This document shows, in pieces, positions 2,471 to 30,841 of a stretch of 64,000 bases of DNA. Below the pieces are notes generated by a model. That model did no database searches. It was given only the letters and a program-made list of their open reading frames with translations, and was not told the DNA's origin. The translations under genes were made by a program, and so were the position numbers. This DNA comes from Escherichia phage vB_EcoM_Goslar, in the sequence record NC_048170.1; one strand, given 5' to 3'. Numbering within the stretch: position 1 is the first letter of the stretch; every line of letters begins with the position of its first letter.

Positions 2471-2887
2471 TTACTTAGCAGCAGGAAATTCCGGCCAATC
2501 GATATTTGGTGCAGCATCGGTATCGACAGCCGACACCGCGTCAACGTAATCCAAAACGGCGTTAAGTCGGGTCGTTTCTTCCGGAGTCAGTTTTCGCCCA
2601 GCCCGTAATTTTAACTGAATAAGATCGATGGAAGCCAGCGAAGAATCAATCAAAGATTGTTTTATCTGTTCTGCCTCGGCGACAAGTTCTTCGTGTTGCC
2701 GCTCGGGTTCCGGAGGCGCGATAAACTCGCCGTTTGAGTATAACCAACCTATTCCAGGTGACACAGCTGCCGTATCGCTAATGCTAACCAGCTGCTGATT
2801 GTCGAATATATCGAGCTCTGCTTCACCATCGTAAACAATCGTGTTTACTACCACTCCATTTTCAATAACAGCGTATAATGTACTCAT
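2471..2887 (-). CDS. tail fiber assembly protein (Tfa-type chaperone)
   Basis: C-terminus ...LNAVLDYVDAVSAVDTDAAPNIDWPEFP resembles the conserved C-terminal motif of lambda Tfa / Mu U-type tail fiber assembly proteins; start chosen at ATG 2887 (MSTLYAVIENG) forming TAATG overlap with fiber stop; ORF track gives 2471..2911. Confidence 0.7.
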   Translation of the reverse strand: MSTLYAVIENGVVVNTIVYDGEAELDIFDNQQLVSISDTAAVSPGIGWLYSNGEFIAPPEPERQHEELVAEAEQIKQSLIDSSLASIDLIQLKLRAGRKLTPEETTRLNAVLDYVDAVSAVDTDAAPNIDWPEFPAAK

Positions 2888-5800
2888 TACATAAACTCCT
2901 CGATGATGCAAATCCCATTAGCACCACGCCCACCAGGCTTAGCGGTTCCTGAGTAAGAGTTATCGTAAGCACCACCACCACCCGAACCAGGCGCGAGGCC
3001 GTTATGGGCGGTGCCAACACCAGCGCGACCGCCACCGCCCCAATATGACGCACCCCCACATCCACCGACGGCAATAGTACCGGCTTGTCCATCGCTACCG
3101 TCTCCGCCCGGAATGCGTATATCCCCGGTAGCAGGTGCGCCCCCATAGCCACCGCCAGTGTTTGTGACAGTTGTTTTTCCTGCGCCTTGCCCGCCGGGAG
3201 CAGTTAGCAGGGATGCAAATTTACTATCCCCACCCCCGTTCCCAGACGTCGCCCCAGAGCCACCGGAACCACCAGAACCAATTATAACAGAATAACTAGC
3301 AGCTGTTACCGTTATAACCGAAATTACTGTTCCGCCAGCTCCTCCCCCAGCACCAAAAAACGTTTCGCTGTTGGAATAAGCCTGACAGCCACCGCCGCCA
3401 CCGCCGCCACCGGTTATTGTTACTCTAATCCGTTTTGTTCCTTGTGTTGGAGTGTACGTCCCTGACGATGTGAAAACACGCATGTTCAGTAAACGTCCGA
3501 CATATCCGCTAGAATCGGCTAAACCAAGATCTTTAGCTGCTAACGTGATATTAGCTGTACCATCGAAAGGTTTACCGTTAATCGTGCGCGCAGTTTGCAA
3601 CTTCGTCGCCGTGGCTGCGTTCCCTGATGTATTCTGGTTCCCCGCGACGTTAACACCTGGTAGATTGATGTTCGCACTACCGTCGAAAGACACCCCACCA
3701 ATGGTGCGGGCTGTTTTCAGTTTTGTCGCCGTGGCGGCATTCCCCGTAGTGTCTTGGTTTCCTGCTGCGTTAACACCCGGCAGACTGATATTTGCCGTAC
3801 CATCGAACGCGACACCGCCAATCGTCCTTGCCGTTTGTAGTTTTGTCGCCGTGGCGGCATTACCGGTTGTGCTTTGGTTACCGGTGGTGTTTACCCCAGG
3901 TAGGCTGATATTTGCTGTTCCGTCAAATGAAACGCCGCCAATCGTCCTTGCCGTTTGCAACTTCGTTGCGGATGCCGCGTTCCCCGTGGTGTTTTGGTTA
4001 CCTGTTGCATTCACACCAGGGATACTATCCTTAGATGTATAGATCTGTGCCCATTCCGACCAATTCGAATCGGCTGCATCCCGACGAGAACGAAGATAGG
4101 CTGGCGCATGCGCCCCCGATGTACCAGACCATCCAATAAGGATCTCACCTTCACCTACTGCGGTTGCGCCTTTAAGATGAATAATATTGCCGTACGCTGT
4201 AGGGTATCCGTTATTGTACGCTTCATACATCTGGATACCCGTATTGCTACCCTGGGTCGCATTAGCTAAAGCGGTGACCCGTCCCTTGGAAGCGAGCACG
4301 TTAATGCTAAAGCTAATATCAGTTGTACCGTCAAAGGCGACCCCATTAATCCTCCGTGCCGTTTGGAGTTTCGTGGCAGTAGCCGCATTACCAGAAGTGC
4401 TCTGGTTACCCGCTTTGTTCACACCCGGTAAATCAATGTTGGCAGTCCCATCAAACGACACACCCCCTATGGTTCTCGCCGTCTGGAGTTTTGTTGCTGA
4501 ACCGGCGTTTCCGGAAGTGCTTTGATTGCCCGCGGCGTTGACACCAGGTAGGTTAATGCTAGCAGAACCATCAAAAGAAACTCCACCGATCGTAATGGTC
4601 GTTTGCAACTTCGTGGCTGTCGCAGCGTTACCCGTCGTATTCTGATTACCAGCTGCATTGACGCCAGGTAATGCGATATCAGTTGTACCGTCAAAAGCGA
4701 CACCACCGATTTTACGGGCGGTCTGTAGCTTGGTTGCGCTTCCTGCGTTTCCGCTGGTGTCTTGGTTTCCTGCAGCGTTAACACCCGGTAGACTGATGCT
4801 GACCGAACCATCGAAACTCACACCACCGATCGTAACAGCGGTTTTCAATTTCGTGGCAGTAGCTGCGTTACCGGTTGTATTTTGATTGCCTGTCGCATTA
4901 ACGCCCGGTAATGCAATATCCGCTGTTCCGTCAAAGGCAACGCCACCGATTCTACGTGCAGTTTGTAGCTTGGTCGCTGTAGCGGCATTACCGCTGGTAT
5001 TTTGCGTGCCTGCTTTATTTACACCGGGAAGATCGATGTTAGCAGAACCGTCGAAGCTAACGCCACCTATCGTTCTTGCCGTAGCAAGTTTAGCTGCTGT
5101 AGCAGCGGCGTTACCGACTTTTAACCATTCGCCCCATGGACCATCCTGGCCGTTCCATGATGCCGTTAAACTACGTACGTAAATATTGCCGGTACGTACA
5201 GTGTAACGTTGTGTTCCACCGAATTGCCCGGTTGGGAGCACTTCAATGTAACCTGCGGCGTTTGCTTCAGGGAAATTGTGGGCGACGTCCGCGTTCGTCG
5301 TTATTGGTTTAGACCAAATACCCACAGATGCTTCGACTGGACCGAAGGTATTCAGATTTGCGTCCGTCGCCATAGCACCATTAAATTTCAGGTACGTCTC
5401 TGGCGATAATCCGATCGTTTTAGCAAACGCAACTTTATCTACGATATCACTACCGTTATTCCCTGCCTGCAATGCTGTCTTAGCTGCCTTTATGGTTTCT
5501 GTCAATCCAAGATACAGTAAGACCGCATCAACGCTTCCTTTGCTTAGCAGATTCAGACCTGTTGACGTTACGTTAGTTAGCCCGATTTGGTTCCGTCCAG
5601 TAAAATAAGGGAGTTTATTCGCATCTGTTGTTAGGTTAGACCACGCGGTCAGCAACGCGTTCAACGGTTGTTTACCCGCCAACGCATTGGTTACTGTCGT
5701 TGCGAAATTAGGATCGTTCCCTAAAGCTTGAGCCAGCTCATTAAGCGTATTTAGCGCTTCTGGAGACGAGTCGATCAGCGATGCGATAGCACGCATCACA

Positions 5801-6861
5801 AATTCCGTGTTGGCAATCTGTCGACTGCTATCGTTCTCTGCAGCCGTAGGCGCTGCCGGGATACCGGTGAACACAGGGCTATTAAGATCTGCCTTGAGAG
5901 CGATGAGACGTTTAAGTGCGTCGACATCGACTTTCAGGTTTTCCCATCCGATGAGAGAACCACCACTGGCGTTATGATAACGGTTGTACCAGAAGTCGCC
6001 GTTAACGCCAAAAAAGAATATACCTTTCTCTTCGTATTGTGGGCCAGAACTATTTCGTGATGTTTCGATATATTTGATTTCAATAAGACCGCTAAACACC
6101 ACTCCTGGGATTATATTGTTGTTTCCAGCTGACTGTGATACCTGGTAAATCCCCGGGGTTGCGGCTTTAACCCATGTTAAGAATTCTGTTACTCCAGCGG
6201 CACCGCTAAAATTCTTAACGTCGGTAAGTATCGCCCCATAACCGAACATACCGGGTAGAGCCACTCGTTCGCTGGTACGGTCACGAATATCTGTCGCAAC
6301 AACGGGCAATTGTTTACGAACAGCATTAACCGCTTTAGGCGTGGCCGATTTTGTCTCGTCGTCGCTATCGGTTTCATTACTTAGAATAGTTAAACCGCGT
6401 GTAGCAGTAGTTGCATCAGGAAGAAATGCGTTATCCAACACCTTAAGCTGTATTGCACTCGTATTACTAACAACGACATGCACCTGACAGTTAAGAACGC
6501 TGGTTGCGCCTTCGGCAGGCGTAGGCTTATATCTTTCTGGCGCACTGCAGACGGCAATCAGAACACCTTGGTCATCATACAGACCGATCTCACGTACCCA
6601 GAACCCACCTTGACCAGCGGGAATAATACCCTCAACGATAATCCTGGTTGTGCTATCACCATCCGCATGGATATTAGAAACTTCCCCACGATAAACTTCG
6701 TGAACAAGCGCTGTTTGGCTGGCGGTCGGGGTTGGGATCGAGCCGTTACCATCACCAACGGCAAAGTGTGTGATTTTTAGTTTCTCACCGTCGGGAAGTA
6801 ACGCAGCGGTGATACGTTCTGCTCCTTTATCGGTAACTACCGTTATATATGCTGTACTCAT
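2887..6861 (-). CDS. tail fiber protein (1324 aa): P2 gpH-like N-terminal domain, about 11 tandem 40-aa fiber repeats, glycine-rich C-terminal region
   Basis: N-terminus MSTAYITVVTDKGAERITAALLPDGEKLKITHFAVGDGNGSIP...GGFWVREIGLYDDQGVLIAV resembles P2 gpH N-terminus; repeats of the form TARTIGGVSFDGSANIDLPGVNxAGNQNTxGNAATATKLQ; C-terminal GGGGGGGG and GxGG runs. Confidence 0.85.
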   Translation of the reverse strand: MSTAYITVVTDKGAERITAALLPDGEKLKITHFAVGDGNGSIPTPTASQTALVHEVYRGEVSNIHADGDSTTRIIVEGIIPAGQGGFWVREIGLYDDQGVLIAVCSAPERYKPTPAEGATSVLNCQVHVVVSNTSAIQLKVLDNAFLPDATTATRGLTILSNETDSDDETKSATPKAVNAVRKQLPVVATDIRDRTSERVALPGMFGYGAILTDVKNFSGAAGVTEFLTWVKAATPGIYQVSQSAGNNNIIPGVVFSGLIEIKYIETSRNSSGPQYEEKGIFFFGVNGDFWYNRYHNASGGSLIGWENLKVDVDALKRLIALKADLNSPVFTGIPAAPTAAENDSSRQIANTEFVMRAIASLIDSSPEALNTLNELAQALGNDPNFATTVTNALAGKQPLNALLTAWSNLTTDANKLPYFTGRNQIGLTNVTSTGLNLLSKGSVDAVLLYLGLTETIKAAKTALQAGNNGSDIVDKVAFAKTIGLSPETYLKFNGAMATDANLNTFGPVEASVGIWSKPITTNADVAHNFPEANAAGYIEVLPTGQFGGTQRYTVRTGNIYVRSLTASWNGQDGPWGEWLKVGNAAATAAKLATARTIGGVSFDGSANIDLPGVNKAGTQNTSGNAATATKLQTARRIGGVAFDGTADIALPGVNATGNQNTTGNAATATKLKTAVTIGGVSFDGSVSISLPGVNAAGNQDTSGNAGSATKLQTARKIGGVAFDGTTDIALPGVNAAGNQNTTGNAATATKLQTTITIGGVSFDGSASINLPGVNAAGNQSTSGNAGSATKLQTARTIGGVSFDGTANIDLPGVNKAGNQSTSGNAATATKLQTARRINGVAFDGTTDISFSINVLASKGRVTALANATQGSNTGIQMYEAYNNGYPTAYGNIIHLKGATAVGEGEILIGWSGTSGAHAPAYLRSRRDAADSNWSEWAQIYTSKDSIPGVNATGNQNTTGNAASATKLQTARTIGGVSFDGTANISLPGVNTTGNQSTTGNAATATKLQTARTIGGVAFDGTANISLPGVNAAGNQDTTGNAATATKLKTARTIGGVSFDGSANINLPGVNVAGNQNTSGNAATATKLQTARTINGKPFDGTANITLAAKDLGLADSSGYVGRLLNMRVFTSSGTYTPTQGTKRIRVTITGGGGGGGGCQAYSNSETFFGAGGGAGGTVISVITVTAASYSVIIGSGGSGGSGATSGNGGGDSKFASLLTAPGGQGAGKTTVTNTGGGYGGAPATGDIRIPGGDGSDGQAGTIAVGGCGGASYWGGGGRAGVGTAHNGLAPGSGGGGAYDNSYSGTAKPGGRGANGICIIEEFM
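3520..4030. repeat. tandem approx 120-nt coding repeats (array 1, about 4 units) inside tail fiber gene
   Basis: Recurring ttgtcgccgtggcggcattccc... units at about 3600, 3720, 3840, 3960. Confidence 0.7.
4290..5110. repeat. tandem approx 120-nt coding repeats (array 2, about 7 units) inside tail fiber gene
   Basis: Recurring units at about 4370, 4490, 4610, 4730, 4850, 4970, 5090; separated from array 1 by a non-repeat insert. Confidence 0.7.
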
Positions 6862-7413: not shown

Positions 7414-7600
7414 TAATCAAATTAAAATGTAAAACGCCTCGAAACCGGAGTGCGATTCGAGGTAAACGTAAACAGTCCAGACGACCGCATAAAATTCCGC
7501 GCATATTGCCCCTCTACCCCGACAAAGCGAGATAGAGGGGAGGATAATACGATTATGCTACTACACTCCAAAGTTCATGGGGCGGTAATCGCCCCATCGG

Positions 7601-20994: not shown

Positions 20995-21645
20995 TCATTC
21001 ATGACGCATATCTTCCAAATCATCCTTTTGTTTTGTAAATTCTGATTGCTTGCGATAAACCGTCCATAAGTCGTATATACCGTGAAAGTTAAGATGGCGC
21101 GCATTTAAGTTAACGGTGAATTCTTCCACAGAGGCAAAATCCGAACGAAGCATCGAATGGAAGGTGTCATCTCCAGTGCAGCCTCCGTATCCTTCACCCT
21201 GATAGACCAAAAGCTGGTGAGGTTGGATACGTGCGGCAACCAATGCAGCTTGTGGTTCGTCGTAAGGCGGCCACGACAGTAGAATAACGTCGTACTGTGA
21301 AAGATCGATGTTTGTGTAGTCGGCTTGCTGGATATCATCAATAAACGGATGGGGATGTATTGCGGTGTCGTACGCGGTAACGTCCTCAACACCAAGTTTA
21401 CGTAACACGTAAGTCAGATAACCTGTCCCACAACCCAAGTCAGCGATGCGTCGTCCGTAACAGATGTTCGCTAACTGGAGCGCGGTATCCATGGTTAACA
21501 ACGACCATCCGATGTGCTGAGTGTATTCTTCACGCATATCCCATTGTTGTCGATACGGCATCGGTTCTAAGATAGCAGCAAGCTGCTGGTACGGCAACGG
21601 CATTTTGGTTTCGCCTTGCGTGAGTAATGCGATAACATCGTTCAT
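20995..21645 (-). CDS. class I SAM-dependent methyltransferase-like protein
   Basis: Motif I IADLGCGTG, acidic VTAYD, later SWPPY (atypical xPPY); start at ATG 21645 preceded by AAGGAAA; ORF track start 21693 would run through hairpin. Confidence 0.55.
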   Translation of the reverse strand: MNDVIALLTQGETKMPLPYQQLAAILEPMPYRQQWDMREEYTQHIGWSLLTMDTALQLANICYGRRIADLGCGTGYLTYVLRKLGVEDVTAYDTAIHPHPFIDDIQQADYTNIDLSQYDVILLSWPPYDEPQAALVAARIQPHQLLVYQGEGYGGCTGDDTFHSMLRSDFASVEEFTVNLNARHLNFHGIYDLWTVYRKQSEFTKQKDDLEDMRHE

Positions 21646-21660
21646 TTTGTTTCCTTTTAT

Positions 21661-21688
21661 CGGCATAAGCCCTCCCATGCCGGGAGGG
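21661..21688 (-). terminator. hairpin CCCTCCC-atgcc-GGGAGGG downstream of 21694..22122
   Basis: Inverted repeat 21670..21688; weak U-tract (CUUAUGCC) on minus strand. Confidence 0.45.
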
Positions 21689-21693
21689 TACAA

Positions 21694-22123: not shown

Positions 22124-22657
22124 TTAAGCTCCTTTGTGTTTTACGGACGATGTTAACCAGGACGATCTTACCGTGAAACCCTCAGACTCGTAGAACGCCT
22201 GGGCTTCGTCGTTATCAGCACGAACATCCAGACCGATAGAATGACCACCGCATCGGTAAGCGATGTTACGTGCTTCATTCATCAAGGCGTGGCCGATCCC
22301 GCGTCCACGGTATTCCGGTTTTACAATAATCGATGTAACATCGTGAATACCCATATGGCTCTCTGTATTCACTTCCAAGAGACCCACTGGTACTGAAGCG
22401 ATAGCATCGATCATAACGACCAACTTTGCGGTGTCTGGTAAACGCTTTTCTAATTCTAAAGCATCGTACTCGCGTTTTAAATCGGGGATATTCTCAAACA
22501 TAAACGTGGTAGCCCATGCCTCTGATTCTACATCGTCGAGAATACGGTACAGCTCACGAATCTGTCGTTTATGTGGGTAAAGGTGTGGATCGGCAGCCGT
22601 TGAGGCGATAACGCAATAGAACGGTCGTTCATTAATAACTACTGTTTTGATGCTCAT
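22124..22657 (-). CDS. GNAT family N-acetyltransferase
   Basis: Motif A ...IVKPEYRGRGIGHALM... and motif B ...AQAFYESEGF... Confidence 0.7.
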   Translation of the reverse strand: MSIKTVVINERPFYCVIASTAADPHLYPHKRQIRELYRILDDVESEAWATTFMFENIPDLKREYDALELEKRLPDTAKLVVMIDAIASVPVGLLEVNTESHMGIHDVTSIIVKPEYRGRGIGHALMNEARNIAYRCGGHSIGLDVRADNDEAQAFYESEGFTVRSSWLTSSVKHKGA

Positions 22658-23160
22658 GCTAAAATTCCCTCATTACCTAACAGTCGATTACGATGACGTC
22701 GGTACATTTGACAAAGTGTTGTGATTTGATAATGTTTGTTGTAACGTACCTCGATACGTTTTTGCACCTCTTTCCATGGAAGTTTATCGTATTGCCGATA
22801 ACGATGGATTTCATTTAACATACGAAGACGAGTAGGATCGGTGTTCTTTATCGTCGTGAGCTTCACACGTTGATATCCACGCTGTAGTCCCGATTCGGAA
22901 TACGTGACGTCAAACTCATCTTGAATGATGGTAATGATCTCCCGCCACCGACGGTTCTCGCCGTCACGTAAATGGACAACCCGTGATAAGATATCGTTCC
23001 GATTACGATGACTCAGTTTAATGTTAAGCATTGAAGCAATCGCGCTAATTGCTCTCTGACTCCGTCCTAACGCTTCACCTATTTCTTTCGATGTCATGAC
23101 GCCCGCGTTTCGGCGTATGAATGCGATTTCGGTTGTTGTGTATTCTTTACCTGCTGCCAT
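22654..23160 (-). CDS. HTH-like repeat protein, tandem paralog 6 of 6
   Basis: Module YTTTEIAFIRRN...SKEIGEALGRSQRAIS plus C-terminal W-x-EV...Q-YRR module shared with paralogs. Confidence 0.5.
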   Translation of the reverse strand: MAAGKEYTTTEIAFIRRNAGVMTSKEIGEALGRSQRAISAIASMLNIKLSHRNRNDILSRVVHLRDGENRRWREIITIIQDEFDVTYSESGLQRGYQRVKLTTIKNTDPTRLRMLNEIHRYRQYDKLPWKEVQKRIEVRYNKHYQITTLCQMYRRHRNRLLGNEGILA

Positions 23161-23624
23161 TTCTTACCACGTGTGTTATAATAGTAACGCTGACAAAGAT
23201 GTGTGTGATGGTACTCCCGTTTGAACTCGACGCTGATAATGCGAGCAACTTCTCTCCAGTTAACTCCTTCATGCCGGAGTGCTGTAATACGGTCTGAAAT
23301 TTTGCACCATTCATCTGGATCGTATCGTCGTAGCTTGAGTCGTCGTATTACGGAGGCGACACTCGCTCTCGATCGGCCAAGATGATTTGACAGTTGTTTA
23401 ACCGAGTATCTGTGGATATTGTCACGAATATAGGAAATCTCGTTGTTCGTATATGCCTCATTGGTTCTCGACGAAGGGAACAGCATATACAACTTATTCT
23501 TAATCGCGCTTTCTGTGCGTTGAAATACAGAAGCCAGCTCACTAACCGGTGGTCTGGGTATCTGGTCCGCGTAATTCTCGAGGCGTGAGAGTTCCTCATC
23601 TGTCCAGCGACGGTATTTGCGCAC
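23094..23624 (-). CDS. HTH-like repeat protein, tandem paralog 5 of 6
   Basis: RRWTDEELSRLENY...SELASVFQRTESAIKNK and second module YTNNEISYIRDN...VKQLSNHLGRSRASV; start proposed at GTG 23624 preceded by AAAGGAG (ORF track 23094..23726). Confidence 0.5.
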   Translation of the reverse strand: MRKYRRWTDEELSRLENYADQIPRPPVSELASVFQRTESAIKNKLYMLFPSSRTNEAYTNNEISYIRDNIHRYSVKQLSNHLGRSRASVASVIRRLKLRRYDPDEWCKISDRITALRHEGVNWREVARIISVEFKREYHHTHLCQRYYYNTRGKKWQQVKNTQQPKSHSYAETRAS

Positions 23625-24099
23625 GGGCAACTCCTTTGTTTTTCGTGTAGTAACACCAACGTTGATACAACGCATGTTTATTCGTCGTAATCCCAAATTT
23701 AACAACAACGTCGTATGTGATAACATTCCAATTTTGGGTAACGTTAAGTCGTTCCGCGATAAACGCGATAATCGCTTCCCGTTCTTGCTTTGTTAACGCA
23801 CGACGAATTCCATTAAGCCGTATAAACTGACGAACCGAGTCATACGAACGGTTTAAATCGTACGCAATCTCCCTCAACGATTTTTGTTTGATTACGGACT
23901 TGATGTACGCGCGTTCTTCTTCCGTATACGGTCGATGCTTTTGGCGTTGACGTATTCCCAAACGTCCCAGACGCGCGTCGATGCTGGCGCGTGTTCGTCC
24001 TGTCCGTTGTGCGATTTCATCAATCGTCAGCGACGTGTTCAAGTACAGGTGTATAACATCTTTTAACTCATCGTTACGCCACGGCCGAGGTCGTCCCAT
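23596..24099 (-). CDS. HTH-like repeat protein, tandem paralog 4 of 6
   Basis: PWRNDELKDVIHLY...IDEIAQRTGRTRASIDARL; YTEEERAYIKSV...LREIAYDLNRSYDSVRQ; C-terminal NW...FGITTNKHALYQRW. Confidence 0.55.
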   Translation of the reverse strand: MGRPRPWRNDELKDVIHLYLNTSLTIDEIAQRTGRTRASIDARLGRLGIRQRQKHRPYTEEERAYIKSVIKQKSLREIAYDLNRSYDSVRQFIRLNGIRRALTKQEREAIIAFIAERLNVTQNWNVITYDVVVKFGITTNKHALYQRWCYYTKNKGVARAQIPSLDR

Positions 24100-24577
24100 C
24101 TTGTATCCCTCTTTTCTTTCTATGATGCCACCAACGCTGATAAACAGCCTGCTTCGTACGTGTTATACCGAAATGCGCATTAACCCGTTCAGCAATGTGG
24201 TGCCAATCCTGTGTTTCTTCTAACAATGTATCAACGAAGGCTATGAAGATCTTAGTATCATCCTCGCTTAACCGCTTGAAACCATGACGGTGTGCTATCG
24301 TTCTAATACTGTTTGGATCCCTGTTTAAATCGCGTGCGAGTTGTTTGTAACTTTTGTGTTTGCAGTGCACTCTGATATATTCCAACTCATCGACACTGAA
24401 ACGTTTATGCGGTTTACGACGTTCAACATTTAAGTATATCAACCTCGATTTAATTGCACCGTACGTTGTTTCCATGATTTCTGCGATTTCACGGATTTTT
24501 AATTTCGGGTGACGATAGTACAATTCCAGCAACTGTTCATCATCCTTACGATTCCATCGTCGTACTGGAGGTTTCAC
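24074..24577 (-). CDS. HTH-like repeat protein, tandem paralog 3 of 6
   Basis: RRWNRKDDEQLLELY...IREIAEIMETTYGAIKSRL; FSVDELEYIRVH...YKQLARDLNRDPNSIR; C-terminal DW...FGITRTKQAVYQRW. Confidence 0.55.
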   Translation of the reverse strand: MKPPVRRWNRKDDEQLLELYYRHPKLKIREIAEIMETTYGAIKSRLIYLNVERRKPHKRFSVDELEYIRVHCKHKSYKQLARDLNRDPNSIRTIAHRHGFKRLSEDDTKIFIAFVDTLLEETQDWHHIAERVNAHFGITRTKQAVYQRWWHHRKKRGIQDGTTSAVA

Positions 24578-24590
24578 AACGAGATTTCTC

Positions 24591-25058
24591 CTATTCTACG
24601 CGTTTTAATGCTTGAGTGTAGTAGAGGGCATGAACACCGCTTAACGTGTAATGGGTGTTAAATTCGTTATTGATGATATTCTGTATTCTCTTCCAGGTGT
24701 TATTCTCTTTTCTAAGGGTGTGTATTCGATGATAGATCATCTCTCGACGTTGCGCTTTGCATGCAACAATACCGTAACGGTAGCAGAGTTTAGCGATTGC
24801 GTCCACGCTACGGTTGAACATCGCTGCAGCTTCTTTCACGCTATGTGTCTTAAGATAATCGGCTAACATCACACGTTCTTCGAAACAACAATAGCGGTGA
24901 CGCGACATGAGTTTCCAGCGCTTGCGATTGCGGTTAATTCGACCTTGAACAGAGCCTTCGGTTCGGTCAAGCCGTGCCGCAATCTCTTGCATCGGGATAC
25001 CGTTTCGGTACAGGGTAATCAATATCGCGTCTTCTTCGGGTGTCCAGTCCTTGACCAT
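24591..25058 (-). CDS. HTH-like repeat protein, tandem paralog 2 of 6
   Basis: KDWTPEEDAILITLY...MQEIAARLDRTEGSVQGRI; second module ...VKEAAAMFNRSVDAIAK. Confidence 0.55.
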   Translation of the reverse strand: MVKDWTPEEDAILITLYRNGIPMQEIAARLDRTEGSVQGRINRNRKRWKLMSRHRYCCFEERVMLADYLKTHSVKEAAAMFNRSVDAIAKLCYRYGIVACKAQRREMIYHRIHTLRKENNTWKRIQNIINNEFNTHYTLSGVHALYYTQALKRVE

Positions 25059-25070
25059 AGCGCCACCCCA

Positions 25071-25391
25071 TCAACGTCTTACTTTAAGCGTTATCTTGTT
25101 TCGAAAACAATAACACCGGATGGCGTGTACGCTACGATTCATTATTTCAGCAATCTCTTTTAGCGTATGTTTCTTTGCAAGCGTGGCAACCCTAACCCTT
25201 TCTTCTGGCGTGTATACTCCCCCGCGAGGTGGTAGATCACCCCATCGTTTCCTCAACTTGAGGTAACGTGCGCGAATAGAGCACGGTGTTCGATTCATGC
25301 TTCGCGCTACTTCTTTATAGCTCGCTTTTGGTGATGTACTAAGAATAAGCAGCAACGTTTCATCTTCTTTATCTGTCCAACGTTTACCCAT
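25071..25391 (-). CDS. HTH-like repeat protein, tandem paralog 1 of 6 (two modules only)
   Basis: KRWTDKEDETLLLIL...YKEVARSMNRTPCSIRARY; YTPEERVRVATL...LKEIAEIMNRSVHAIR. Confidence 0.55.
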   Translation of the reverse strand: MGKRWTDKEDETLLLILSTSPKASYKEVARSMNRTPCSIRARYLKLRKRWGDLPPRGGVYTPEERVRVATLAKKHTLKEIAEIMNRSVHAIRCYCFRNKITLKVRR

Positions 25392-25395
25392 TTTC

Positions 25396-28473
<3,078 letters not shown>

Positions 28474-28553
28474 AAAATTGTCAAAATGTACATCAGCATA
28501 ACGCCCGTGCCCGCCCGCGATGGGAGGGACACAGGCAATACGCTTTTATTTCG

Positions 28554-29863: not shown

Positions 29864-30841
29864 TTACTTTTTCCTGAAAATCAATGTCGGTAAGCCGTTT
29901 CTTACAGCATAATACAACACTAAGAGGTTAATCTTGCCTGCGGATACCGTAAGCATTTTACGACGACGTGGTAAACTAACCGGTACGGTAGATGCCATCG
30001 TTGCGCTGTTCTTGAACGTTTGGGAATAACGTCGCAGCGACGCTTCACCTAACAATGGAAGGAACAGATCCTCGGTAAGAATATCATCGCAGATATACGT
30101 AATCGCAAGTAACGGCGGATTCCACTCGTTCAGGAACTCGAAAATCTCGTTTGCGATACCCAACGCATTATTAGGAAGCGGAACCTCACGAACGTATTTC
30201 TGATTGCCTTTATCCAGCAGGATTCTTGACATACAGTAATCGTGGATTATACCCGCGACGTCATCCGCTGTTTCTGCGTTCTGCATCAACGCCTGTGCTT
30301 CTTCCCAGGTCAGCTGACGTTTTGTTTCGTAGTAGGTTGGTTTCAAAACCGCGTAAAAATCATGGATCAAACGACCAACATCCCCACGAGTTTTTGTTGC
30401 TAACGCGACTGCGTACGCTTTCTTCTCCGCATCCGTTAAGATCTGATTACGCCACAGTTCGTATTCGTCTAACAGCTCGGTGTATTTGGCTGTCCATTCA
30501 GAGGAAAGATAATAACCAATACTGTCAATCAATGCGTGCGTTAAAACACCCAGACGCTCGCGTCGGGGATCGACCGACGGCTCATAGACAAAAGGTAGCT
30601 TCGGTTTTTCAAAGCCATTGGCTACGACGGTATCTGAAAAAGCGTTAGCGAAAACACCCATCGGTTTCCATGACGTAAGGAGATCCTGATATAGCATTGG
30701 ATGAACGTTATTAATCGCTGTGAGTTTATCATCGAAAAGACTTACGCTTGGATGTTCGGCATTCGCAAGCTCAAAATAAATTCTTTCGAGCAACGCCTTT
30801 ACCGCATCGCGTGTCTTATCGATTGGGCCAACAGAAGCCAT
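29864..30841 (-). CDS. hypothetical protein (325 aa)
   Basis: ORF track. Confidence 0.5.
   Translation of the reverse strand: MASVGPIDKTRDAVKALLERIYFELANAEHPSVSLFDDKLTAINNVHPMLYQDLLTSWKPMGVFANAFSDTVVANGFEKPKLPFVYEPSVDPRRERLGVLTHALIDSIGYYLSSEWTAKYTELLDEYELWRNQILTDAEKKAYAVALATKTRGDVGRLIHDFYAVLKPTYYETKRQLTWEEAQALMQNAETADDVAGIIHDYCMSRILLDKGNQKYVREVPLPNNALGIANEIFEFLNEWNPPLLAITYICDDILTEDLFLPLLGEASLRRYSQTFKNSATMASTVPVSLPRRRKMLTVSAGKINLLVLYYAVRNGLPTLIFRKK

Follow-up and report, generated by a model that had tools for sequence, protein, structure and literature searches.

Six consecutive genes of Escherichia phage vB_EcoM_Goslar, at positions 22654 to 25391 on the minus strand of the 64,000-nucleotide stretch of sequence record NC_048170.1 analyzed here (the window), are relatives, as judged by profile comparison, of the D5 regulator of phage T5. 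They are separately translated, cotranscribed early genes, and each encodes a protein comprised of two or three independent three-helix helix-turn-helix (HTH) domains with short basic linkers. By analogy with D5, we tentatively propose that the array may provide early D5-like double-stranded DNA (dsDNA)-binding regulators of phage replication or of the temporal transcription switch, a reading to which we give close to an even chance. The region is limited by the stop codon of the last open reading frame (ORF) and the start codon of the first. The genes, designated g1 to g6, are as follows.

g1 (gp119): 25071..25391, minus strand; 106 amino acids; modules W-Y
g2 (gp118): 24591..25058, minus strand; 155 amino acids; modules W-Y-C
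g3 (gp117): 24074..24577, minus strand; GTG start; 167 amino acids; modules W-Y-C; the protein modeled with AlphaFold
g4 (gp116): 23596..24099, minus strand; 167 amino acids; modules W-Y-C; 26-nt overlap with g3
g5 (gp115): 23094..23624, minus strand; GTG start; 176 amino acids; modules W-Y-C; 29-nt overlap with g4
g6 (gp114): 22654..23160, minus strand; 168 amino acids; modules Y-C-C; 67-nt overlap with g5; the conserved member of the array

A Shine-Dalgarno-like sequence precedes each of the six genes, and neighbors either overlap by 26 to 67 nt or lie 12 to 13 nt apart. Inspection of the sequence favored the GTG at 23624 as the start of g5; this codon follows the ribosome-binding site AAGGAG by six bases, precedes a conserved RRW motif and was considered more plausible than the upstream ATG at 23726 of the listed ORF. 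The genes were numbered HOV27_gp119 to gp114 by comparing calculated masses with those of the RefSeq Goslar proteins in a virion proteomics table, with agreement to within 1 Da. For the neighboring genes the window and table values, respectively, were 76,683 and 76,684 Da for the DNA ligase LigA (gp121; YP_009820806), 26,912 and 26,912 Da for gp120, 23,232 and 23,232 Da for gp123, and 36,966 and 36,967 Da for the collar protein gp126. The g1 to g6 proteins themselves were not found among the listed entries of that table, and a literature search on Goslar gp114 to gp119 found no discussion of these genes.

A preliminary description of this DNA, made from the letters alone, had recognized six consecutive paralogous genes built from two or three related modules, and had allowed that the resemblance could be compositional. 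The ORFs are real and the motifs quoted for them are present: WTDKEDE, WTPEEDA and WTDEELS (the W-x2-E-E-D type); YTPEERV, YTEEERA and YTTTEIA (the Y-T-x-E-E type); EIAEIMNRS and EIAYDLNRS; and, in g3 and g4, W...FGIT...YQRW. Pairwise blastp with composition-based statistics (database size, 1e6) gave E values from 1e-24 (g3 versus g4) to about 1e-3, and a profile that combined g2 to g5 with their relatives but left out g1 and g6 detected both of these genes, at 1.4e-27 and 3e-23, respectively. Apart from the array, ORFs of the 64-kb window scored no better than E = 0.05 with this profile. The paralogy therefore is no compositional artifact. Nucleotide-level repeats were not found in the array, and the duplications thus are old.

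The proposed module scheme stood in part. Each protein does have two or three modules, and the N-terminal (W) and middle (Y) modules share homology (hhalign probability, 96.5%; E = 8e-10). In the same comparison, the C-terminal (C) module is distinct from both. There is no C module in g1, and g6 lacks W and matches the C part of the profile twice.

Pfam analysis of g1 to g4 revealed matches above the gathering scores for Myb_DNA-binding, Myb_DNA-bind_6, Sigma70_r4_2 and HTH_23 or HTH_28. The two Myb models (PF00249 and PF13921) scored 34.1 bits against a cutoff of 24.4 and 30.4 against 22.9 in g1, and g3 scored 27.3 against 22.9; g2, g4, g5 and g6 fell below the Myb cutoffs. Both HTH_28 and HTH_23 exceeded their cutoffs in g2. 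An AlphaFold model of g3, made from an alignment of 27 sequences, had a mean predicted local distance difference test score (pLDDT) of 83 and contained nine helices forming three separate three-helix bundles with HTH, which span residues 10 to 160 of 167. The HTH folds suspected in the preliminary description are thus borne out by structure prediction as well as by the Pfam models. The predicted template modeling score of the g3 model was low (0.48), as is expected of domains arranged as beads on a string; prediction from the single sequence was poor (pLDDT, 47).

The best structural match to the fold of the model was the DNA-binding domain of GcrA (PDB 5yiu), followed by Myb repeats. Foldseek of the whole g3 model against the PDB returned nothing significant, and its top matches were solely multi-HTH DNA binders. 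By sequence, the closest solved structure was the two-HTH CRISPR repeat DNA-binding protein 2lvs (E = 2e-9), and the next was c-Myb R1R2R3 (1.6e-4). A Foldseek search of BFVD with the g3 model returned as top matches Goslar proteins of 155, 176 and 106 amino acids, which are the lengths of g2, g5 and g1. All six proteins are strongly basic (isoelectric point [pI], 9.8 to 10.5; net charge, +12 to +16). Predicted fold, family and charge together strongly support double-stranded DNA binding by the tandem HTH domains. Between paralogs, helix 2 is the most conserved helix in the W (identity, 0.40) and C (0.31) modules, and the third (recognition) helices are the least conserved (0.20 to 0.25). Since the paralogs differ most in their recognition helices, they probably read different sites.

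The family assignment rests on PHROG 323 ("transcriptional regulator, D5-like"), which was matched by all six proteins at E values from 8.4e-10 to 1.1e-18 (g1, 1.1e-18; g2, 7e-18; g4, 1.4e-16; g5, 3.9e-18, over profile positions 92 to 251; g6, 8.4e-10). T5 D5 itself (T5.118; YP_006946.1) matches this family at E = 1.2e-71, and its sequence consists of four W/F-T-x-E-E...EIA...G(R/K) HTH modules that resemble those of the array. The genomic setting also is shared: in T5 (NC_005859), the NAD-dependent ligase genes ligA and ligB are immediately followed by D5, and the Goslar array also is downstream of an NAD ligase. Two relatives served as comparison genomes, a 92% identical Goslarvirus (L002) and a sister Goslarvirus represented by a 248-kb ENA contig (L004). 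In both, the intervening gene gp120 is not present (a blastn indel) and the HTH array directly follows the ligase. Because gp120 is missing from both relatives, it represents a recent insertion or deletion.

T5 D5 sits among genes D2 to D15, which are classed as early. It is annotated in its sequence record (NC_005859), and in a passage of PMC12630848 that cites McCorquodale 1979, as a DNA-binding protein that is needed for replication and late transcription and is involved in early shutoff. What it shares with the Goslar array is PHROG 323, tandem HTH modules with no other domain, a site after an NAD ligase among replication genes and early-class expression. The Goslar array, unlike D5, has the distinct C module and a hypervariable cassette of five genes. 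T5 relies on the host RNA polymerase, whereas Goslar makes use of a phage nucleus and of split RNA polymerases that it encodes itself. Indeed, the window encodes subunits of a split multisubunit RNA polymerase, one of them homologous to phiKZ gp71, as expected from the earlier view that this phage has its own polymerase.

Other characterized HTH proteins resemble the array less completely. Myb/SANT repeats (c-Myb R1R2R3, SNAPc4 and Reb1) likewise are tandem three-helix domains that open with a conserved tryptophan. In the Goslar modules, however, other hydrophobic residues mostly stand in for the three regularly spaced tryptophans, the length of W and Y is less (about 45 amino acids), and the proteins are from a bacteriophage rather than a eukaryote. 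GcrA, a Caulobacter cell cycle regulator (5yiu), has a C-terminal sigma-70-binding domain with no counterpart in the array proteins, and the Pfam GcrA model matched g2 residues 4 to 43 only below the cutoff (E = 0.06). The archaeal proteins Cbp2 (2lvs) and Cbp1 are similar in being small basic proteins comprised solely of two or three linked HTH domains, and the 2lvs match spans W plus Y. Cbp1 differs in that its NCBIfam model gave 16 to 20 bits against a cutoff of 140, and the Goslar genes have no CRISPR context and belong to another lineage.

The array had been called an unusual expansion of a DNA-binding family. It is notable, but it has precedents: jumbo phages encode 1 to 15 transcription factors, and a Myb-type expansion occurs in Bacillus jumbo phage G (Iyer et al. 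2021, PMC7824862). Phage G offers the same picture of a lineage-specific Myb-like HTH expansion in a jumbo phage, one proposed to diversify the transcription program (PMC7824862). It differs in that its proteins are of an RsfA-like subfamily, the phage lacks an RNA polymerase of its own and no tandem hypervariable cassette has been described.

A profile search among 1.84 billion representative proteins returned 15,735 matches to the W-Y unit at E values of 1e-3 or less. The matches include thousands of uncharacterized proteins of 300 to 900 amino acids with 4 to 10 tandem copies (examples, P0042 to P0186), one of which is encoded on a 392-kb contig; some of these multicopy proteins end in a C-terminal domain common to 268-amino-acid proteins (P0030 to P0034). 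Homologs of g6 were found in Goslarvirus relatives only. Among 50,697 phage genomes, tblastn with g3 detected nothing at E values of 0.01 or less. The region likewise had no megablast counterpart in phages, plasmids or E. coli genomes (the phage collection evidently lacks Goslar). NCBIfam models assigned the array proteins to no family. PADLOC defense and antidefense models likewise indicated no membership, with two marginal matches only (E = 0.003 and 0.01). A lead to T5 ORF55/DRT4 was dropped because the ORF55 fold is unrelated.

The array belongs to a unit that comprises gp122, the ligase gene, gp120, g1 to g6, a GNAT acetyltransferase gene and gp112, and that is bracketed by elements consisting of a GC-rich hairpin and (G/C)TTATGC(T/C)G. 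The features that flank the array are as follows.

Hairpin element: 28494..28536, minus strand; ahead of gp122, the ligase gene and the array; a GC-rich hairpin with GTTATGCTG after it; fold energy, -33.5 kcal/mol (z = -5.0); probable unit boundary
NAD-dependent DNA ligase LigA (gp121): 26090..28165, minus strand; upstream of the array in the same unit; identified by tblastn to phage ligases
gp120: 25396..26103, minus strand; 235 amino acids from the start at 26103; between the ligase gene and g1
GNAT acetyltransferase (gp113): 22124..22657, minus strand; start overlaps the g6 stop by 4 nt; Pfam Acetyltransf_1, 55.8 bits against a cutoff of 20.7
Hairpin element: 21661..21688, minus strand; hairpin ccctccc/gggaggg followed by CTTATGCCG, just past the gp112 stop; probable downstream unit boundary

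Both hairpin elements are kept in L002 and L004, as is the position of the GNAT gene after the array. No family match was obtained for gp120 in PHROGs, Pfam, NCBIfam or PADLOC.

The transcriptional profile of the array was taken from published RNA-seq data on cells in which ChmA, the nuclear shell protein, was knocked down, at 30 min postinfection (bioRxiv 10.1101/2023.09.20.558163, Supplementary Table 2). The log2 fold changes upon knockdown were -0.16 to +0.46 for gp114 to gp119 and about -3 to -7 for late genes, such as that of the major capsid protein (gp041). The ChmA knockdown transcriptome is equated with early infection by its authors (bioRxiv 10.1101/2023.09.20.558163). The near-zero change therefore assigns the array to the nucleus-independent, early class. 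Read density was even over gp112 to gp122 (0.57 to 1.02 reads per nt), consistent with cotranscription.

Several observations concern the surroundings of this unit. Every gene from gp106 to gp159 (window positions about 16000 to 64000) is unaffected by ChmA knockdown in the RNA-seq table; the virion collar protein gp126 (29864 to 30841) thus is a structural protein within the nucleus-independent class. Intergenic hairpins followed by TTTATGCTG or near variants occur on the minus strand at 7485, 14460, 16242, 21661, 28494, 36976, 44962 and 57123, and the 9-mer TTTATGCTG itself, when one mismatch is allowed, has 39 occurrences where 15.5 would be expected. The hairpin-TTTATGCTG elements look like combined terminator and promoter or processing elements, yet they flank an early-class unit. 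An interpretation of the hairpin-TTATGCTG elements as late promoters of the nonvirion RNA polymerase is contradicted by the RNA-seq data for the ligase-array unit. A sigma-70 promoter and terminator scan within the array gave no signal over shuffled controls. Three genes downstream of the array, gp111 (20995 to 21693) contains the motifs DLGCGTG and SWPPY and matches the PHROG 19090 family; its Pfam methyltransferase matches are subthreshold, and it is possibly a DNA or RNA methyltransferase. In L004, positions 1410 to 2237 carry an extra D12-class N6-adenine DNA methyltransferase gene (PF02086) upstream of the ligase, which is absent from the window. A tail fiber protein of 1,324 amino acids (2887 to 6861) is mosaic, its middle and C-terminal parts being 45 to 69% identical to fibers of coliphages P1, 9g-like and HdSG1.

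Comparison with L002 gave ratios of nonsynonymous to synonymous substitution rates (dN/dS) of 0.055 to 0.235 for the six array genes (g1, 0.18; g2, 0.09; g4, 0.24; g5, 0.15; g6, 0.07), similar to those of the neighboring genes. This indicates purifying selection, and each of g1 to g6 is therefore a functional gene. In L004 the gene order is ligase, five HTH genes (156, 171, 169, 154 and 169 amino acids) and GNAT. Comparison with this genome revealed a sharply bounded variable segment.

Hypervariable cassette: 23144..25340, minus strand; from about codon 18 of g1 to the end of g5; no blastn similarity to L004
Flanking identity to L004: 90 to 91% for flanking DNA at the nucleotide level; at the amino acid level, 93% for the ligase, 90% for GNAT and 90% for g6

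Orthologous pairs of the g1 to g5 segment showed amino acid identities of 54%, 48%, 39% and 48%. Synonymous sites in g1 to g5 were saturated (proportion of synonymous differences, 0.74 to 0.93; synonymous substitution rate [dS] in the flanks, about 0.38), and the cassette therefore is an old divergent allele imported by recombination and not merely a fast-evolving segment. Goslar has one gene more than L004, and the first gene of L004, s1, is similar to g1 as well as to g2.

Exchange also has taken place within genes. The protein P0012 is a chimera of two cassette alleles that are joined between W and Y: in W, identity is 79% to the g3-type allele and 54% to the sister allele, whereas in Y and C it is 88% and 82%, respectively, to the sister allele and 56% and 39% to the g3-type allele. 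P0025 is a variant of g4 with an internal deletion that removed the Y module and part of C. Genes g1 to g5 would thus act as an exchangeable cassette that recombines at module boundaries. Relatives of the Goslar-type allele were present in an assembly labeled E. coli (P0007), and the sister allele was present in a Salmonella Panama assembly (P0189). Scans of IMG/VR for the sister alleles P0016, P0012 and P0011 found two close contigs only or nothing. Goslarviruses are known from 237 assemblies of E. coli, Salmonella and Shigella (PMC12768965).

How the proteins might work can be sketched from these properties. The proteins c-Myb R2R3, Pax and Tc3 bind DNA through successive domains placed in major grooves. 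Each HTH domain of an array protein would similarly sit in a major groove, such that one protein reads an extended dsDNA site. The proteins would be made in the cytoplasm during the vesicle stage and then would most likely act on phage DNA, as D5 does in T5. There, the array would control replication or the switch from transcription by the virion RNA polymerase to nucleus-dependent transcription by the nonvirion RNA polymerase. Of the roles suggested in the preliminary description, a temporal switch and host takeover both are compatible with the D5 homology and the early-class expression.

Several points weigh against D5-like regulation of the phage program. Direct hhalign comparison of the array profile with T5 D5 gave only moderate agreement (probability, 60%; E = 8.5e-5). 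The linkage between ligase and D5-like genes was not found in Serratia phage Moabite or Aeromonas phage PhAER-1. D5 is a single protein of 255 amino acids with four modules and a near-neutral pI of 6.3, whereas Goslar has six proteins of 106 to 176 amino acids with a pI of about 10. We know of no phiKZ-type RNA polymerase that needs accessory DNA-binding factors. Most importantly, g1 to g5 are only 39 to 54% identical between phages whose genomes are 90% identical, and this is at odds with the proposal because regulators of conserved phage promoters are expected to be conserved. Replacement of the g1 to g5 allele instead fits targets outside the phage, as in host takeover, or pressure from host sensors.

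The strongest competitor of D5-like phage regulation is host takeover, which we regard as less likely though well worth considering. The early, basic HTH proteins would stay in the cytoplasm, bind the host chromosome or host regulators and silence or reprogram host genes, with alleles that track the host genus. Early, nucleus-independent expression suits such a role, and the strong divergence of g1 to g5 beside conserved flanks fits targets off the phage genome. There are functional parallels: T5 D5 has a toxic effect on E. coli if produced by itself (bioRxiv 10.64898/2026.07.11.737809), and gp094 of Erwinia phage RAY, an HTH protein, coats host DNA in the manner of H-NS. The occurrence of the two alleles in differently labeled assemblies (E. 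coli for P0007 and Salmonella Panama for P0189) points the same way, but assembly labels are indirect evidence of host and these are two data points only. Against this explanation, the characterized member of the family, D5, acts on phage replication and transcription.

An arms race with host sensors would account for the cassette differently, and we consider it unlikely as the principal explanation. Here, D5-type HTH proteins are sensed by host defenses, and duplication, cassette swaps and module shuffling evade or saturate the sensors while the DNA-binding task is kept. The type IX retron-Kva2 has T5 D5 as its natural trigger and responds to the HTH fold of D5 (bioRxiv 10.64898/2026.07.11.737809). 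The cassette-type hypervariability with saturated synonymous sites, the chimeric P0012 with its module-level mix of alleles and the internal deletion in P0025 all are of the kind anticipated. However, the retron study argues that it is the fold and not the sequence that is recognized, which weakens the case for escape by divergence; dN/dS within the lineage is purifying rather than diversifying; and the saturated dS indicates an old allele imported by recombination rather than fast adaptive change.

The suggestion that the proteins are promoter specificity factors, which would dock on the virion or nonvirion RNA polymerase in the manner of sigma subunits and steer it to promoter classes, did not hold up, and we consider it improbable. 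It was attractive for a phage with RNA polymerase genes of its own; in addition, phiKZ-like phages have no known sigma factor, and a beta-flap partner has been postulated for them (PMC7824862). Sigma70_r4_2 exceeded its Pfam gathering score of 25.7 bits in g2 (34.4), g3 (27.6) and g4 (28.0), a similarity at the domain level only. The HTH is of the region 4 type alone: Pfam gave no match to sigma region 2 or 3, NCBIfam sigma models scored 16 to 22 bits against cutoffs of 43 to 212, and Myb, HTH_23 and GcrA fit the residues concerned at least as well. The array proteins lack region 2 and hence are not sigma factors. Moreover, the genes themselves are early and hence unable to direct early transcription, and five of the six are swapped between phages with conserved RNA polymerases and intergenic motifs.

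Finally, it is very improbable that the proteins are decayed remnants of homing endonucleases, or free-standing DNA-binding modules of selfish elements, that are of no use to the phage: HNH families with the same N-terminal HTH modules are matched in PHROG (phrog_1891, phrog_8446 and phrog_7545), P0036 joins a W module to an HNH domain, endonucleases occur among the BFVD matches and the array lies in a variable region with adjoining indels, but the PHROG HNH matches span only the HTH part of the profiles, Pfam detects no nuclease domain in any of the six proteins, which are for that reason not homing endonucleases and are filled almost to their whole length by HTH modules, purifying selection acts on all six genes, gene order and module architecture are kept between deeply diverged alleles, and the transcription level equals that of the ligase.

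The HTH domain, PHROG 323 and the HTH/Myb expansions of jumbo phages (PMC7824862) were already known. New are the placement of gp114 to gp119 in the D5 family, the three-module architecture, the early-class expression and the sharply bounded five-gene cassette with module-level recombination. If the proteins are ordinary accessory regulators, the analysis still provides a tidy annotation of six "hypothetical" genes. Replacement of the cassette between near-identical Goslarviruses suggests an unusual evolutionary pressure on the locus, and the role of D5 as a retron trigger adds to this. A more ambitious synthesis, which we think rather doubtful, is that the gp119 to gp115 cassette and the conserved gp114 together regulate the chimallivirus early-to-late program or, alternatively, host shutdown, with allele swapping and module shuffling among Goslarviruses driven by host immune sensors, such as type IX retrons, that recognize HTH proteins of the D5 type. 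If so, the array would be both a regulatory hub and an immune target. A 2025 review of the biology of nucleus-forming phages nowhere mentions transcription factors. Goslar is the E. coli model of these phages, and g1 to g6 are concrete, easily testable candidates for a part in the vesicle-to-nucleus transcription switch.

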